A stretch of DNA of 64,000 nt from an uncultured Gammaproteobacteria bacterium (GTDB lineage: Bacteria > Patescibacteriota > Microgenomatia > Levybacterales > UBA12049): the NCBI GenBank assembly GCA_964416445.1, contig CAYQEE010000003.1, forward strand, positions 1,946-65,945. Reading direction: 5' to 3'. The notes beneath the pieces were generated by a model. That model was not told the origin of the DNA and ran no database searches. It saw nothing but the letters and a program-made list of their open reading frames with translations. Positions within the stretch are counted from its first letter, which is position 1, and every line of letters begins with the position of its first letter. Below, piece by piece: positions 14,422-23,505 of the stretch. Made by a program: the position numbers and the translations under genes.

Positions 14422-15120
14422 ATGGCTTTTCGTGGTGAGTTATTACCCAAAGTCAATTTGTCTCCACTTGCTCAACGTTTTGCAACAGTGATTAATGGAT
14501 ATGCGCCTCAGCGAGAGCGTGGAACGAGACCACTAGAATCTCCGCGGCAATTAATGAGTCGTTTACTTGCCGTAGGTGCAGACGGGTTACTTGCCCGGTT
14601 AAGAAACGATACCACATGGGATTTTCCTGGAGTCGAAACTGTTTCGTATCGAGAAGTTATCCAAGACGGGAATGGTAATCCTTTATCAACTGCAGCATTG
14701 GGTTTAAGTATGACTTATTGGGATGTAGGCCTGATGTCAGGCAAATTAGAGTTATTAAGAAGATCGGGAGATTTAATGCAACGAGGGCAACCAGAGCAAA
14801 TGAGACAAGGATTACGTGAAACTAGTATATTAGTTGTTGCAGTTTCTCATAGAAATGATTCTGGAATTTATATCCAAGATATGAGACGTGGACCTTTTGA
14901 TGATTCTCGAGTTAGAGCAGGAGATACAATAACTATTCAGACTCCAGCTATTTCATTAACAGCAAATAAGCCAGAAGAAATTAATGGATATATTGCTGCT
15001 TGGTTATTACATTGTACAAAAGAAAGAGATGTAACCGAAACATTACCCCATCAATTAGTACGTCAAGGAGCTGAACATATTCATCAACAATCACTCCATA
15101 AATATAAGCCAATAAATTGA
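14422..15120 (+). CDS. Hypothetical protein, compositionally atypical (Arg/Gly/Leu-rich, higher GC than its neighbours)
   Basis: 232-aa ORF between tRNA-Leu and tRNA-Pro. By eye its GC is in the low 40s percent against a roughly 33% background. No recognisable motif. Confidence 0.4.
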   Translation: MAFRGELLPKVNLSPLAQRFATVINGYAPQRERGTRPLESPRQLMSRLLAVGADGLLARLRNDTTWDFPGVETVSYREVIQDGNGNPLSTAALGLSMTYWDVGLMSGKLELLRRSGDLMQRGQPEQMRQGLRETSILVVAVSHRNDSGIYIQDMRRGPFDDSRVRAGDTITIQTPAISLTANKPEEINGYIAAWLLHCTKERDVTETLPHQLVRQGAEHIHQQSLHKYKPIN

Positions 15121-15991: not shown

Positions 15992-16429
15992 TTACTGCCG
16001 TCTTGGGGATACCCGTTCTACCATTTTACTCGCGGCATTTCCAATTTGGTTCCCTGTTTCGAGAGCTGCGCCTTCTAATATTCCCATACTAAAACCTCGT
16101 AGACCTCTTCGTAACACTCTACCTAGGGGAATCGAATTTGCCATTTTTACTTCTTCTCGTACACGCTGAGTACCTAATACTTTTGCTTCTTTATAGGTAG
16201 TTATAGGAGGACCATCCGTTATTTTTGGCGTATCCTTGAAATGATTTTCTCTATGTTCTGCTAAGGTCGCTGCAACTTCATCCCAACTTCGGCGAATACC
16301 AGTACTTAACGCTTGTTGTGTTACTGCTCCAAGAGCAACTAGTAATGCTTCAGGACGTGTTGGTTTTCTTACTTCCTGCTTTGGTGCATTCCCTGGAATT
16401 TTTGCATATGTTCGTTGTAATTCATTCAT
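15992..16429 (-). CDS. Hypothetical protein, compositionally atypical (Arg/Ala/Gly-rich)
   Basis: 145-aa ORF with elevated GC relative to the flanks; no motif recognised. Confidence 0.4.
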   Translation of the reverse strand: MNELQRTYAKIPGNAPKQEVRKPTRPEALLVALGAVTQQALSTGIRRSWDEVAATLAEHRENHFKDTPKITDGPPITTYKEAKVLGTQRVREEVKMANSIPLGRVLRRGLRGFSMGILEGAALETGNQIGNAASKMVERVSPRRQ

Positions 16430-16625: not shown

Positions 16626-18041
16626 ATGAAATATATCTTCTTTTCATATTCTGGATTAAGTTACCCAATCGCCTATAAATTACAACAAGAAGGATTTGAA
16701 GTAACTGTTGGGGTAATTGAAAATATAAAAGACTACGTCATGGAAGAAGAAGCAAATAAAGCAGAAGAGAGTGATTTTAATAAAGAAAGACGTTTGCAAC
16801 TCTATAAGAATATTCTTAAACTTCAACCTGGTGATAAAGTTGTTGAGTTTATGAAAACAATAAAAAATCCTCATGAATATTTCGTTTTTTTCGAGGAAAA
16901 TAATTTATATCGTTGGGCTGATAAAGTACGGGATTTAGGATTTGAAGGTAATTTTCCTACAAAGGAAGACTTTTTACTTGAAATTGATCGTGAATCTGCT
17001 AAGCAGTTTGTAAAACAATACTATCCAAAGTTATATACTCCAGAAGTCAAGGAATTTACAAAAGTATCAGATGCTATTAAATTTCTTGAAACATCTCAAG
17101 ATATTTGGGTTTTAAAAGGTAAACATGATGGTGCGGAGACGTATGTTCCTGATTCAAATGATATCAATCTCGCAAAAGGGCAATTAATTGAAATGTTAAA
17201 TAATTTTCCGCAGAAATATGAAAAGCCGGGATTTATTCTTGAAATGTTTATCCCTTCAATTGTAGAACTTACTCCTGAGAAGATTTACTACGATGGAGTT
17301 CCTTTGGCAACAACAATGAACCTAGAAAATAAGTCATTTGGGAGTGGAAATATTTCTGTCCAAACAGGTTGTGCTCAAGATTTAGTTTTCCCCACAGATA
17401 TGGAAGATAGAGTTAATAAGATAGCTTTTCCTCCCATCGTTGATGAAATGGCACGAAAGCATAGAGGGCTTTTTATTTGGGATGCATCGCTCTTAGTTAA
17501 TCGAAGAGATGGAAAGATATATTTTGGGGAATTTTGTTCGAATAGACCAGGTTATAATTCGATATTTACCGAAATAGCCCAAGTTCCTTCTATAAATCAT
17601 TTTTTTGAAAGTATTGTACATAAACATTCTCCCTTTACCCTTGGTACTGTTGCCACATCTGTTCGAATTTTTAACCTAAATAGTGATGAAGAAACAGATA
17701 AAGTTGCCGCAGATATATCGATTGACTATAAAAAAGAAATTGAGAAAGATTTATGGTTATGGGATGTTAAGAAAAACCAACGTGATAGACTTGTTTCAGT
17801 AGGGACAGATTGGAATCTTGCCGTAATAACAGGTGCCGGAAAATCAATTGATGAAGCGATTGCCAAAACATATAAAAATATTGAACAGTTTTCTTTTGTA
17901 GGTGCTTATTATCGCTCAAAAGATGACTATCTCTCACTTGATTATCCAACTTCTATTATTAATAGACTAAATTATGGTCTTGAAAGGGGCTTGTATCATC
18001 TTCCTTTTGATGTAAAGGTAGGAGACATACAAACTAAATGA
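16626..18041 (+). CDS. Divergent PurD-like ATP-grasp ligase
   Basis: N-domain MKYIFFSYSGLSYPIAYKLQQEGFEV resembles PurD MKVLVIGSGGREHAL; the central IWVLKGKHDGAETYV resembles the VIKADGLAAGKGV ATP-grasp strand; FGEFCSNRPG sits at the position of PurD EFNARFGDPE. At 471 aa it is longer than canonical GAR synthetase, and no other pur genes are nearby. Confidence 0.5.
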   Translation: MKYIFFSYSGLSYPIAYKLQQEGFEVTVGVIENIKDYVMEEEANKAEESDFNKERRLQLYKNILKLQPGDKVVEFMKTIKNPHEYFVFFEENNLYRWADKVRDLGFEGNFPTKEDFLLEIDRESAKQFVKQYYPKLYTPEVKEFTKVSDAIKFLETSQDIWVLKGKHDGAETYVPDSNDINLAKGQLIEMLNNFPQKYEKPGFILEMFIPSIVELTPEKIYYDGVPLATTMNLENKSFGSGNISVQTGCAQDLVFPTDMEDRVNKIAFPPIVDEMARKHRGLFIWDASLLVNRRDGKIYFGEFCSNRPGYNSIFTEIAQVPSINHFFESIVHKHSPFTLGTVATSVRIFNLNSDEETDKVAADISIDYKKEIEKDLWLWDVKKNQRDRLVSVGTDWNLAVITGAGKSIDEAIAKTYKNIEQFSFVGAYYRSKDDYLSLDYPTSIINRLNYGLERGLYHLPFDVKVGDIQTK

Positions 18042-18505
18042 AGGATAGACTGATAGATTTTAAAAATTTAAAGTTTGAGTTGAGAGATGAAATGCGTTAT
18101 GACGACGCAGGTGACTATTTTGATAATACTATAATTGCCTATGATTATAATGATGATATTATCACTAACGCTATTTTTTTACACGAATTTATTGAATATG
18201 CACTAATAAAATCTGCTGGTATTTCTCCTGAATTGATTGATAAGTTTGATACCGATGAATCTTATATTGACAAGTATCCCAAAGAATATGAACTTTATAG
18301 TAAATTCCATGATTTAGCAAACACGATTGAACGACGATTTATTGAAAACCTGGGACTTAATTGGGAGGAGCATGATAAAAAAATTAATATGAAAAAAGTA
18401 AAAACTGCTGTTACCAATATTAGTAACGAATTACATAAGGAAAATCCTAATGAAGAAACGATCAATAAATCGAAAGAAATTGTAAAGAGCCATATGGAAA
18501 AATAA
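18038..18505 (+). CDS. Hypothetical acidic protein, translationally coupled to the ATP-grasp gene (ATGA overlap)
   Basis: 155 aa, rich in D/E/Y; no motif recognised. Confidence 0.4.
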   Translation: MKDRLIDFKNLKFELRDEMRYDDAGDYFDNTIIAYDYNDDIITNAIFLHEFIEYALIKSAGISPELIDKFDTDESYIDKYPKEYELYSKFHDLANTIERRFIENLGLNWEEHDKKINMKKVKTAVTNISNELHKENPNEETINKSKEIVKSHMEK

Positions 18506-18553
18506 CTTCACATGAAGTAATATCTCATTAAGAAACATCTGCATTTTAAGTAC

Positions 18554-19372
18554 ATGAAAAAATTCATCAAATCATTTGACGGTGTGAGAATTCACTATGA
18601 ATTACATATCGGAGAAGTAAATAAAAATATTTTATTCATTCATGGACTTGGAGGTGATTTGCGTGCGTGGGATGAGGAAAGAGCTTTACTTGAAAATCGG
18701 GGTTATACAACGATCGCGTTGGATTTACGAGGTCATGGGTTATCTGATAGACCTTCGCCAGAAAGCGCTTATGCATTTACAAATTTTGTTCGAGATATTC
18801 AAATGATTATTGAAAAAGAAAAATTACAAAATGTCATTTTAGTCGGACATTGTTTGGGTGGAATGATAGCAATGTCAGTAGCTTATTTATATCCAAAACA
18901 GATACGCGCATTGGTGTTAGTCGATACGAGTTATAAGGCTCCTTACTTTAGCAAAATTATTATCAACCACACACTAATACAGCTTTTTTTACGTTTATTT
19001 GCAACGTATATCCCAGGATTTTATATGCATGGAACAGTTGATTATACAAAATTTAGATTTACTGATGATTTTGATAAAAAGCGAATTTTATCTGATATTA
19101 TGCACACATCGCTTAAAAGTTATTTACTTATTTGTGAGAATCTACTTTCCCTTAATGGAGAGAAACTGCTTGATGGGATAAACATTCCAACATTAGTTAT
19201 TGAAGGTGAAAAAGATAAAGTATATCCGCCTTCCATTGCAAAACATATTTCCTTGCGAATGAAGAACGCTAACTTAGATTTAATCAAAGATGCAAATCAT
19301 ATTATTGTATTGACCAAACCTTCTGAATTAGTGGAAAGTATAATCTTATTTTTACAGAAATTTAATTCTTAG
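18554..19372 (+). CDS. Alpha/beta-hydrolase fold protein with a Cys at the nucleophile elbow
   Basis: The HGLGGD oxyanion region; the nucleophile elbow reads VGHCLGG, with Cys where Ser normally sits; a candidate acid in EGEKDKV and a His in KDANHIIV. Confidence 0.7.
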   Translation: MKKFIKSFDGVRIHYELHIGEVNKNILFIHGLGGDLRAWDEERALLENRGYTTIALDLRGHGLSDRPSPESAYAFTNFVRDIQMIIEKEKLQNVILVGHCLGGMIAMSVAYLYPKQIRALVLVDTSYKAPYFSKIIINHTLIQLFLRLFATYIPGFYMHGTVDYTKFRFTDDFDKKRILSDIMHTSLKSYLLICENLLSLNGEKLLDGINIPTLVIEGEKDKVYPPSIAKHISLRMKNANLDLIKDANHIIVLTKPSELVESIILFLQKFNS

Positions 19373-22929: not shown

Positions 22930-23505
22930 ATGGGTGAAAAAGTTTTATTTCCAGTTTATCCTACTCCAAAATACACAAGCGAACAACGTGATAAATTGGG
23001 ACAGATGTATGGTAATCATCTCATGTTACTCTCAATGCTTGAGAGTCCAAAAAGCCCAGAAGTTGAAGCGGAAATTCTCTTCGGCTATGAGTGTTTTTTA
23101 GATTGGGTTTTTTCAAAAGACGGAAGAAGAATATCATCAAAAAGAATAGATTTGCCTAATTATATTGAACTGAAAAATAACATAGATCCTTTGGAAATTG
23201 ATGCACTGAAAAGTACTGTAATAAATATTTTTCGTGAAGGAATTCCTGTTCCCCTAATTAATAAAGGCCAATACTGGAGCTATCCGAAAATTGAACAAAA
23301 TAGAATTCTTATTCAACCTGAAGAAGCTGCAATTGTAACACACAAATTTGGATTGAGTGACGGTATAAGAAGAACATGGAAAGATGTTGCTATGCTAATG
23401 GGAGTTGATAGTTCATCTGTGACACAACGTGAAAGCAGAATCCGGGGAAAATTTCGGCATCCTAGTCATATGATGTTATTACGACCATTCTATCATTTAA
23501 GATAA
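22930..23505 (+). CDS. Sigma-70 region 4-like HTH domain protein, with no recognisable region 2
   Basis: The C-terminal ILIQPEEAAIVTHKFGLSDGIRRTWKDVAMLMGVDSSSVTQRESRIRGKFRH matches the sigma-70 region 4 consensus (L..RE..VL..RFGL......TL.EVG...GV.R.ERIRQIE..AL.KLR). The N-terminal 120 aa lack the region-2 signature. Confidence 0.5.
   Translation: MGEKVLFPVYPTPKYTSEQRDKLGQMYGNHLMLLSMLESPKSPEVEAEILFGYECFLDWVFSKDGRRISSKRIDLPNYIELKNNIDPLEIDALKSTVINIFREGIPVPLINKGQYWSYPKIEQNRILIQPEEAAIVTHKFGLSDGIRRTWKDVAMLMGVDSSSVTQRESRIRGKFRHPSHMMLLRPFYHLR

Follow-up and report, generated by a model that had tools for sequence, protein, structure and literature searches.

A hyperconserved PurD-derived ATP-grasp ligase family and its small partner protein in bacteria of the candidate phyla radiation, with intein-bearing relatives in phages

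Do a PurD-like ATP-grasp ligase, a small acidic protein and an alpha/beta hydrolase, encoded one after another on the same strand, form one functional unit, and is the ligase an enzyme of purine synthesis? This question is raised by a 64,000-nucleotide stretch of contig CAYQEE010000003.1 (assembly GCA_964416445.1, GTDB order Levybacterales; hereafter, the window). An initial annotation, made from the sequence alone, described the three genes as an unusual module. The three open reading frames (ORFs), the ATGA overlap of the first two, the FGEFCSNRPG block of the ligase and the GHCLGG nucleophile elbow of the hydrolase were all borne out (Table 1); the gap before the hydrolase gene, given as 49 nt, was measured as 48 nt. 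We found that the 471-aa ligase descends from glycinamide ribonucleotide (GAR) synthetase, PurD, yet is not a GAR synthetase. The real unit is the ligase gene with the gene of the 155-aa protein, and the trio is a local coincidence, since the hydrolase gene adjoins the pair in no other locus. The ligase is the founding example of an unannotated, hyperconserved PurD-derived family whose catalytic motif is modified and whose partner protein is new.

The fold of the ligase is that of PurD. When its AlphaFold2 (AF2) model (predicted local distance difference test score, pLDDT, 76.8; predicted template modelling score, pTM, 0.78) was compared with the Protein Data Bank (PDB) by Foldseek, the best 15 matches were all GAR synthetases (E 1e-19 to 1e-14, template modelling score about 0.6, 14-19% identity), and the family profile aligned with E. 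coli PurD at an hhalign probability of 95.4%. The four-domain N-A-B-C ATP-grasp architecture of PurD (EC 6.3.4.13; TIGR00877; PDB 1GSO, 2YW2 and 2QK4) is present in both proteins, with a 50-residue insert in the N domain of the ligase. Biotin carboxylases, PurT, PurK and L-amino-acid ligases formed a second tier (E ~1e-13). They resemble the ligase in fold, presumably in an acyl-phosphate mechanism, and in an acidic Mg ligand on the strand preceding the E-x-N strand, but they are less similar to it than PurD is, and none of their family models matches it.

Curated models of GAR synthetase scored low: 30.9 bits with TIGR00877 (curated cutoff 288) and a sub-threshold 18.3 with Pfam GARS_C (cutoff 34.8), and GARS_N and GARS_A were not detected in the Pfam scan. 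A fold search of BFVD returned generic ATP-grasp proteins only, PHROGs and PADLOC gave no match, and comparison of the ligase sequence and the family profile with the sequences of solved structures gave nothing useful. One database labels a homologue "phosphoribosylamine-glycine ligase". Neither purD nor purH was found in the window by tblastn, and the surroundings of the 19 genomic loci that we compared, the window included, contain no pur genes. Because the residues of the phosphoribosylamine (PRA) site are lost, as described below, the curated score is far below the cutoff and the window contains neither purD nor purH, the ligase is not a GAR synthetase. The initial annotation had read the protein as PurD-like rather than as purD itself, and the structure model and the profile search agree with this; the GAR-synthetase residues are not fully conserved.

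Residue roles in PurD were taken from PMC8880213 and PMC2978367, and conservation was counted in 81 divergent representatives, which are otherwise 30-45% identical (97 for the E-x-N motif position). The ATP-grasp fold of the ligase has its phosphate-binding Lys/Arg residues and acidic Mg ligands: E119, R122, K164, E234, K236, D286, E302 and R307 are each kept in at least 76 of the 81, and R122, K164, D286, E302 and R307 in at least 78 (K164 in 78, E302 and R307 in 80). K164 corresponds to Lys145 of PurD, the ATP-phosphate Lys (PMC8880213), while R122, E302 and R307 correspond to K105, E286 and R290, E234/K236 to the Asp/Lys pair of the D-H-K block (D212/K214 in Aquifex), and E119 to the Mg/ATP Glu. 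The ligase thus shares with PurD the ATP-phosphate Lys, the Asp/Glu plus Lys pair, the Mg-binding Glu and the acyl-phosphate Arg; it also keeps the C-terminal motif Y-R-x-x-D, and the PurD-specific G-P-N-T-G-G loop can still be recognised in vestigial form. The invariant Asp286 stands where PurD has Gly and is nearer to Glu267 of PurT (PMC2978367).

The family has lost the GGREHA block, whose Arg13/Glu14 are the proposed PRA phosphate/ribose site (PMC2978367), the GLAAGK B-loop, Asp295/Glu297 of RFGDPE (human numbering), which are ligands of glycine and of the PRA amine (PMC2978367), and the C-domain Arg, R385. The window ligase reads S-G-L-S-Y-P-I-A at the place of GGREHA and K-G-K-H-D-G-A-E-T at that of the B-loop; at the place of RFGDPE the family has R-P-G-Y-N, with the Arg alone kept. 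On the catalytic strand, E-F-C-x-N-R replaces the E-F-N-x-R of PurD. The Glu is kept, and in place of the Asn of E-x-N 90 of 97 representatives have Cys and the other 7 have Ala; an Asn two residues past the canonical position is common, not invariant (53/81). This block, which had been called degenerate, is a strongly conserved family-specific variant (C304 in 75/81) and also the insertion site of inteins. C304 and C249 are the only two Cys residues of the window ligase; the loop of C249 is modelled as flexible, because its pLDDT is below 50.

The two-gene unit was recognised by neighbour clustering over the 19 genomic loci, in which the sole recurrent neighbour of the ligase gene is that of the 155-aa protein, and this in Levyibacteriota-type genomes only. 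When metagenomes were scanned with the small protein as query, 23 loci with close homologues were recovered; with the window and four other genomic loci these make 28, and in 28 of 28 the small-protein gene abuts the ligase gene. In CPR bacteria (candidate phyla radiation) the ligase is always paired in this way. Twelve pairs are co-directional and 16 convergent (3 genomic and 13 metagenomic); among the 23 metagenomic pairs the ligase gene is co-directional and upstream in 10. The ATGA overlap is also present in L004. No third conserved gene was found in the 19 genomic or the 28 pair-bearing loci, and the hydrolase gene is beside the pair in none of the other pair-bearing loci, nor in the stand-alone ligase loci. 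The proposed trio is therefore reduced to two: the acidic protein is a genuine partner with which the ligase travels, and the hydrolase belongs to a family that sits in other contexts. At the metagenomic locus L041 (1647-3020, 4477-4854), two ATP-grasp copies flank the small-protein gene, a 45%-identity paralogue upstream and a convergent orthologue on the other side.

The small protein is acidic (isoelectric point 4.93, net charge -11, 16 Asp, 9 Tyr). It has 88 homologues at 54-75% identity, of which all taxon-named ones come from the candidate phyla radiation (CPR) and none has a Pfam domain. Its AF2 model (pLDDT 89.7) shows three short strands, a long helix with H49-E50-F-x-E53, and then more helices. 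The invariant core across CPR and distant phage homologues comprises R20-Y21, G25-D26-Y27, H49-E50-F51-x-E53, D71, Y87, H91, E98-R99 and G106, and the C-terminal third, which differs among homologues in both length and sequence, is missing in the phage relatives. Minigluzincins and the IrrE/PprI HExxH metalloproteases likewise have a three-stranded sheet, a helix with H-E-x-x-[H/E] and a later His/Glu on a long helix; however, the motif here is HExxE, not HExxH, these proteins appear among the Foldseek matches only at E values of at least 1.2, and the small-protein profile matched neither PDB profiles nor Pfam. PADLOC gave no match. The conserved residues suggest that the protein is not a substrate but an enzyme or adaptor with a putative metal site. 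Distant relatives (~31% identity, HEFVE kept) lie beside terminase large-subunit genes on phage-like contigs, with no ATP-grasp gene in the flanks.

Beyond the window, a word-indexed search gave 522 ligase homologues, the best 120 of which are all ~470 aa long and 68-78% identical. According to named sources and a scan of species-representative genomes, the holders are Levyibacteriota (CPR), Coxiellales (Aquicella lusitana and Coxiellaceae metagenome-assembled genomes) and Anaerolineae/Chloroflexota. Identity is 66-72% within Levyibacteriota (94% in one near-identical genome pair), 78-87% within the gammaproteobacterial clade (excluding L015, an outlier at 59-66%), 76-97% within the Anaerolineae clade and 59-75% across phyla. 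The window ligase is nearer to Gammaproteobacteria (75%) than to other Levyibacteriota; this implies transfer of the gene between phyla, with CPR bacteria as its most diverse holders. The Levyibacteriota locus is syntenic, next to obg. In Coxiellales and Anaerolineae the ligase gene stands alone, without conserved neighbours, so the small partner is dispensable.

The ligase is under strong purifying selection (dN/dS 0.008-0.048). One pair of Levyibacteriota genomes allows a direct comparison: identity is 94.7% for the ligase, 89.6% for its small partner and 75.4% for Obg, an essential GTPase (dN/dS 0.108 for Obg), so in this pair the ligase has changed more slowly than Obg. The earlier description of the module as accessory thus suits its phyletic pattern, but not the constraint on the ligase gene. 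No entry in Pfam, NCBIfam, PHROG, PADLOC or PDB and no paper searched describes the ligase family or its partner; papers on PurD-like and ATP-grasp proteins in phages, on inteins in ATP-grasp/GARS proteins and on CPR ATP-grasp enzymes and peptidoglycan did not describe the family. The Aquicella lusitana copy (L001; LR699114.1, 1368964-1386379) lies between a gene for a PNP_UDP_1 nucleoside phosphorylase and two Ntox11-like proteins, in a variable island that also holds DUF488, LigD/Ku and a restriction-modification gene of type II. The L004 copy of the ligase has a HicA gene close by.

An exhaustive profile search reached further and returned 446 cluster representatives, of which 139 had E <1e-30. 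The closest outgroup, P0210 (L023), is cellular and comes from a probable CPR genome. Its operon (L023:8588-14010) encodes two PurD-like paralogues in tandem (469 and 464 aa), followed in this list by an ATP-grasp_3 protein (424 aa) and an ornithine/diaminopimelate-type pyridoxal-phosphate decarboxylase (446 aa), and is embedded in a mur/dcw cluster with Mur ligases, MurA, GlmU and GlmS on one side and FtsI, MraW and MraZ on the other. Divergent relatives sit on contigs of uncultured phages. On an IMG/VR phage contig (L026), a ligase relative is followed by a lysin of the M23/lysozyme type; on L061, a block of large unannotated ORFs precedes the ligase relative, which is followed by an amidase endolysin (phrog_822, 1e-21). 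The order on L062 and L063 is a tail-fiber gene, the ligase gene, an HNH/endonuclease VII-type gene on the opposite strand (L062:7803-8255 (-), L063:1930-2382 (-)), a 125-aa small-protein homologue (hidden Markov model E 1e-22, motif HEAVE) and an unclassified peptidase. The ligase gene thus stands directly before an endolysin or peptidase gene in three phage lineages, and one lineage (the two contigs L062/L063) carries the small partner too, in a pair that the HNH gene, which looks like a homing-endonuclease insertion, has split. The copies in L024, L025 and L029 are surrounded by very large ORFs in phage-like blocks, with an internal-virion-protein match and a GroES-like gene; at the locus noted at L025:4518-4820, the ligase copy is beside the GroES-like gene and a 1418-aa protein with the internal-virion-protein match. 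Among 50,697 GenBank phage records, tblastn gave no match to the window ligase, to P0212 or to two small-protein relatives, and the L062 ligase had one match (24%, E 5e-3), in an unannotated Caudoviricetes record. Single-sequence scans of viral contigs with P0212 and P0236 found nothing.

Four representatives (P0252, P0277, P0297 and P0299) contain LAGLIDADG inteins of 385-395 aa. The insertion site is E-F^C, between the equivalents of F303 and C304, so that the family Cys serves as the +1 residue; the inteins start with CF..D/E T and finish with FFSSN|C. Once its intein is excised in silico, P0252 has 440 aa and agrees with the intein-free allele of L026 at 95% of positions; an intein-free allele at 95-96% identity is on the IMG/VR contig UViG_3300026509_000003. 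About 12 phage-type representatives are fused, at either end, to a domain of ~110 aa with the motifs DxDG...I-T-G...K...E-D, which appears haloacid dehalogenase (HAD)-like and was not confirmed by Pfam or PDB profiles. P0236, P0243 and P0262 have C-terminal tails of ~260-310 aa, a coiled coil followed by a beta-rich domain, which resemble scaffold or virion-targeting modules; packaging into the virion is possible for these versions.

With middling confidence, we propose that the ligase is an active PurD-derived ATP-grasp enzyme which, with its dedicated small partner, forms a two-gene module to which the hydrolase is an unrelated neighbour. The ligase would bind ATP and Mg through its retained residues (R122, K164, E234/K236, D286, E302 and R307), would form an aminoacyl-phosphate from an amino-acid-like carboxylate and would pass the acyl group to an amine acceptor; that the acceptor would be other than PRA follows from the loss of all PRA-binding features of PurD. 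Catalytic activity and an amino-acid-type acyl substrate are thus probable from the residues kept. The ligase of Microgenomates-type CPR bacteria, and that of one phage lineage or more, would work with the small protein, which, as a putative metal-dependent protein (H-E-x-x-E/D/H/E), may hydrolyse or edit the product or may serve as a specificity subunit. As the acceptor we would guess first, and speculatively, at a precursor of the cell wall or at an amino-sugar or nucleotide phosphate. The cell-wall and amino-sugar-phosphate idea comes from the mur/glm context of L023 and the position before lysis genes in three phage lineages, and that of a phosphorylated small molecule from the PurD ancestry and the HAD-like fusions. 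Extreme conservation and possible virion packaging of some phage versions would point to a protein target.

Several observations weigh against this proposal. The replacement of the Mg-ligand Asn by Cys, or in a few cases Ala, and the lack of a glycine-rich B-loop mean that the chemistry could differ from that of standard ATP-grasp enzymes. The small protein has no significant Foldseek match (best E ~1.2). In Coxiellales and Anaerolineae the ligase is solitary, and its context there gives no acceptor. The link to the cell wall consists of one bacterial locus and the phage gene order, which may merely mark the end of a late operon, and the HAD assignment is at the motif level (Acid_phosphat_B 0.0037 in one member, NT5C ~0.08 in two). 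A broader reading, which we regard as doubtful, is that the pair is an enzymatic system shared by CPR bacteria and phages, and later moved to Coxiellales and Anaerolineae, that would make a new covalent modification tied to lysis or the envelope, such as an aminoacylated cell-wall precursor or amino-sugar/nucleotide phosphate; the Cys at the Mg-ligand Asn position, beside a second active-site Cys, may then indicate unusual chemistry. If so, the sequence constraint would reflect a highly conserved macromolecular or multi-partner target.

Other explanations of the locus account for part of these data. That the ligase is a divergent purD of purine synthesis deserves next to no credence: PurD is its best structural match, TIGR00877 and GARS_C match weakly and one database uses the name, but 30.9 bits stand against 288, the PRA and glycine ligands are lost, purD and purH are absent from the window, and some phages carry relatives next to their endolysin genes. 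If the ligase were a PurD-like pseudoenzyme, catalytically dead and serving in structure or regulation, the missing E-x-N Asn and glycine-rich B-loop would be explained; this is highly improbable, given that the residues of the ATP/Mg site are invariant across members 30-40% identical, that inteins target the catalytic strand, and that some relatives are fused to HAD-like enzymatic domains. The three genes might form a single pathway in which the ligase builds a bond that the Cys-hydrolase processes or reverses, like glutathionylspermidine synthetase/amidase, and the shared strand, the 48-nt gap, in which no terminator is predicted, and the conserved Cys-Asp-His triad of the hydrolase family agree with this. 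We consider it very unlikely, and the hydrolase role assumed in the initial annotation falls with it: the hydrolase gene is absent from all other pair-bearing and stand-alone loci, its homologues lie beside PolA and GT2 genes, and its family is conserved at 41-52% identity, against 68-78% for the ligase.

The remaining two alternatives concern the pair itself. ATP-grasp enzymes that tag proteins are established, and the 155-aa protein, acidic and strictly adjacent, might be a substrate or carrier modified by the ligase, as in RimK/S6 or LysX/LysW; the initial annotation had named it as a possible substrate. This is unlikely. A conserved acidic C-terminal acceptor tail, as expected of a RimK or LysX substrate, was not found; the C-terminus varies, and its absence with the whole C-terminal third from the phage relatives argues against a carrier-tail role. 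The invariant His, Glu, Asp and Arg-Tyr clusters are of the kind typically found in active or metal sites, two phyla without the small protein conserve the ligase just as well, and distant small-protein relatives lie beside terminase genes without a ligase. A phage-derived conflict system, acting in defence, in superinfection exclusion or as toxin and antidote, is rather unlikely. Such a system would fit the patchy distribution with cross-phylum transfer, the phage relatives of both genes, the persistence of adjacency through inversion, the Aquicella copy amid Ntox11-like, restriction-modification and LigD/Ku genes, and HicA near the L004 copy. However, PADLOC matched neither protein, such extreme conservation is unusual for arms-race genes, the Levyibacteriota locus is syntenic next to obg, and the ligase is tolerated alone in two phyla.

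An active ligase with a dedicated partner would have parallels in RimK, LysX/LysW, glutathionylspermidine synthetase/amidase and cyanophycin synthetase/cyanophycinase, where an ATP-grasp enzyme is encoded in close linkage with a small or hydrolytic partner; here, in contrast, the partner is a new family without a conserved C-terminal acceptor tail and is not homologous to the known partners. CmoY, the amide ligase of a phage hypermodification (PMC12783734), is a phage-encoded ATP-dependent amino-acid ligase and a precedent for unusual acceptors. We set it aside as an analogue, since it is an AMP-forming enzyme of the asparagine-synthetase type, not an ATP-grasp enzyme, and there is no CmoA/CmoX context here. 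Slow evolution, movement among three phyla and phages, inteins and the lack of an annotated family are a combination that usually marks an important activity on a conserved target. Few CPR bacteria or their phages have been cultured, and for most of the genes conserved among them no function has been assigned. Were the acceptor named, the ATP-grasp repertoire would gain a new reaction, and it would become clear how PurD was adapted to another use; a process of the cell envelope or of lysis that is peculiar to CPR bacteria and their phages might also come to light. The present result also corrects "phosphoribosylamine-glycine ligase" labels, which would wrongly credit these genomes with a step of purine synthesis.

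Table 1. Features of the ligase locus in the window and of related loci and proteins
Feature	Position or members	Strand	Basis or remark
471-aa PurD-derived ATP-grasp ligase gene	16626-18041	+	ORF, Foldseek, hhalign, homologue search
155-aa acidic partner protein gene	18038-18505	+	ORF, AF2, adjacency, phage homologue beside phage ATP-grasp
ATGA stop/start overlap of ligase and small-protein genes	18038-18041	+	sequence; translational coupling in window genome
272-aa alpha/beta hydrolase gene, Cys100-Asp221-His249 triad; neighbour outside conserved module	18554-19372	+	Pfam, homologue alignment
Ligase catalytic-strand motif G-E302-F-C304-S-N306-R307-P-G	17526-17552	+	PurD equivalent E286-F-N288-C-R290-F-G-D-P-E
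Ligase K164 (WVLKGK), counterpart of PurD ATP-phosphate Lys145	17115-17117	+	hhalign; 78/81 representatives
Ligase C249 in Q-T-G-C loop (PurD N-T-G-G-M-G loop)	17370-17372	+	conservation; AF2
Small-protein H-E-F-I-E, putative metal-binding motif	18182-18196	+	conservation across homologues
Hydrolase nucleophile elbow G-H-C-L-G-G	18845-18862	+	alignment to arylesterases, homologue conservation
Distant small-protein relatives	L055:3989-4378; L057:913-1308; also L056, L058-L060		phage-like contigs
Intein loci/allele	L024:10001-12478; L026:149-1471		catalytic strand of phage ATP-grasp relatives
HAD-like fusions, N-terminal	P0221, P0226, P0233, P0244, P0255, P0266, P0278, P0294, P0297, P0329		motif
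HAD-like fusions, C-terminal	P0225, P0281		motif
Second-type fusions, C-terminal	P0260, P0263		DFD...T...K...DD, weak NT5C similarity

The hydrolase has the alpha/beta hydrolase fold (Pfam Abhydrolase_1, E 1.4e-31, 110.5 bits, cutoff 25.8), and its Cys nucleophile, noticed in the initial annotation, is real: Cys100 aligns with the nucleophile Ser (GFSMGG) of solved arylesterases and His249 with their catalytic His, and of 120 homologues, 118 keep C100, all keep D221 and 119 keep H249, with the elbow reading GHC[FL]GG. The Pfam model DLH, of the classical Cys-type dienelactone hydrolases, scored 17.8 bits (cutoff 21), and the nearest curated models, of PcaD/MenH/BioH-like Ser hydrolases, were all far below their cutoffs. 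Named holders are Davies-, Levy- and Roizmanbacteria and CPR3; the family may be an undescribed CPR-wide clade of Cys-hydrolases, and would be a separate minor lead.

The surroundings are largely as first described, with tRNA-Leu and tRNA-Pro upstream of the module, two PMT_2/GT-C genes (Pfam) downstream, and orphan ORFs of raised GC content (0.43-0.46 versus ~0.33) between the tRNAs and the module; the module itself, at 0.28-0.37, is compositionally ordinary. Two Arg/Ala/Gly-rich orphan ORFs flank tRNA-Pro, at 14422-15120 (+, 232 aa) and 15992-16429 (-, 145 aa), with a local GC of up to 0.46. Neither has a family or Rfam match, and since three tRNAs are the sole Rfam matches between 12 and 24 kb, these GC-rich ORFs are not known RNAs. 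On the minus strand, from 16469 to 16441, a sigma-70 consensus without mismatch (TTGACA-17-TATAAT) points into the 145-aa ORF. Just past tRNA-Gly, an ORF without a Pfam domain (22930-23505, 191 aa) has a weak match to the phage sigma-factor family phrog_351 (E 0.0012).

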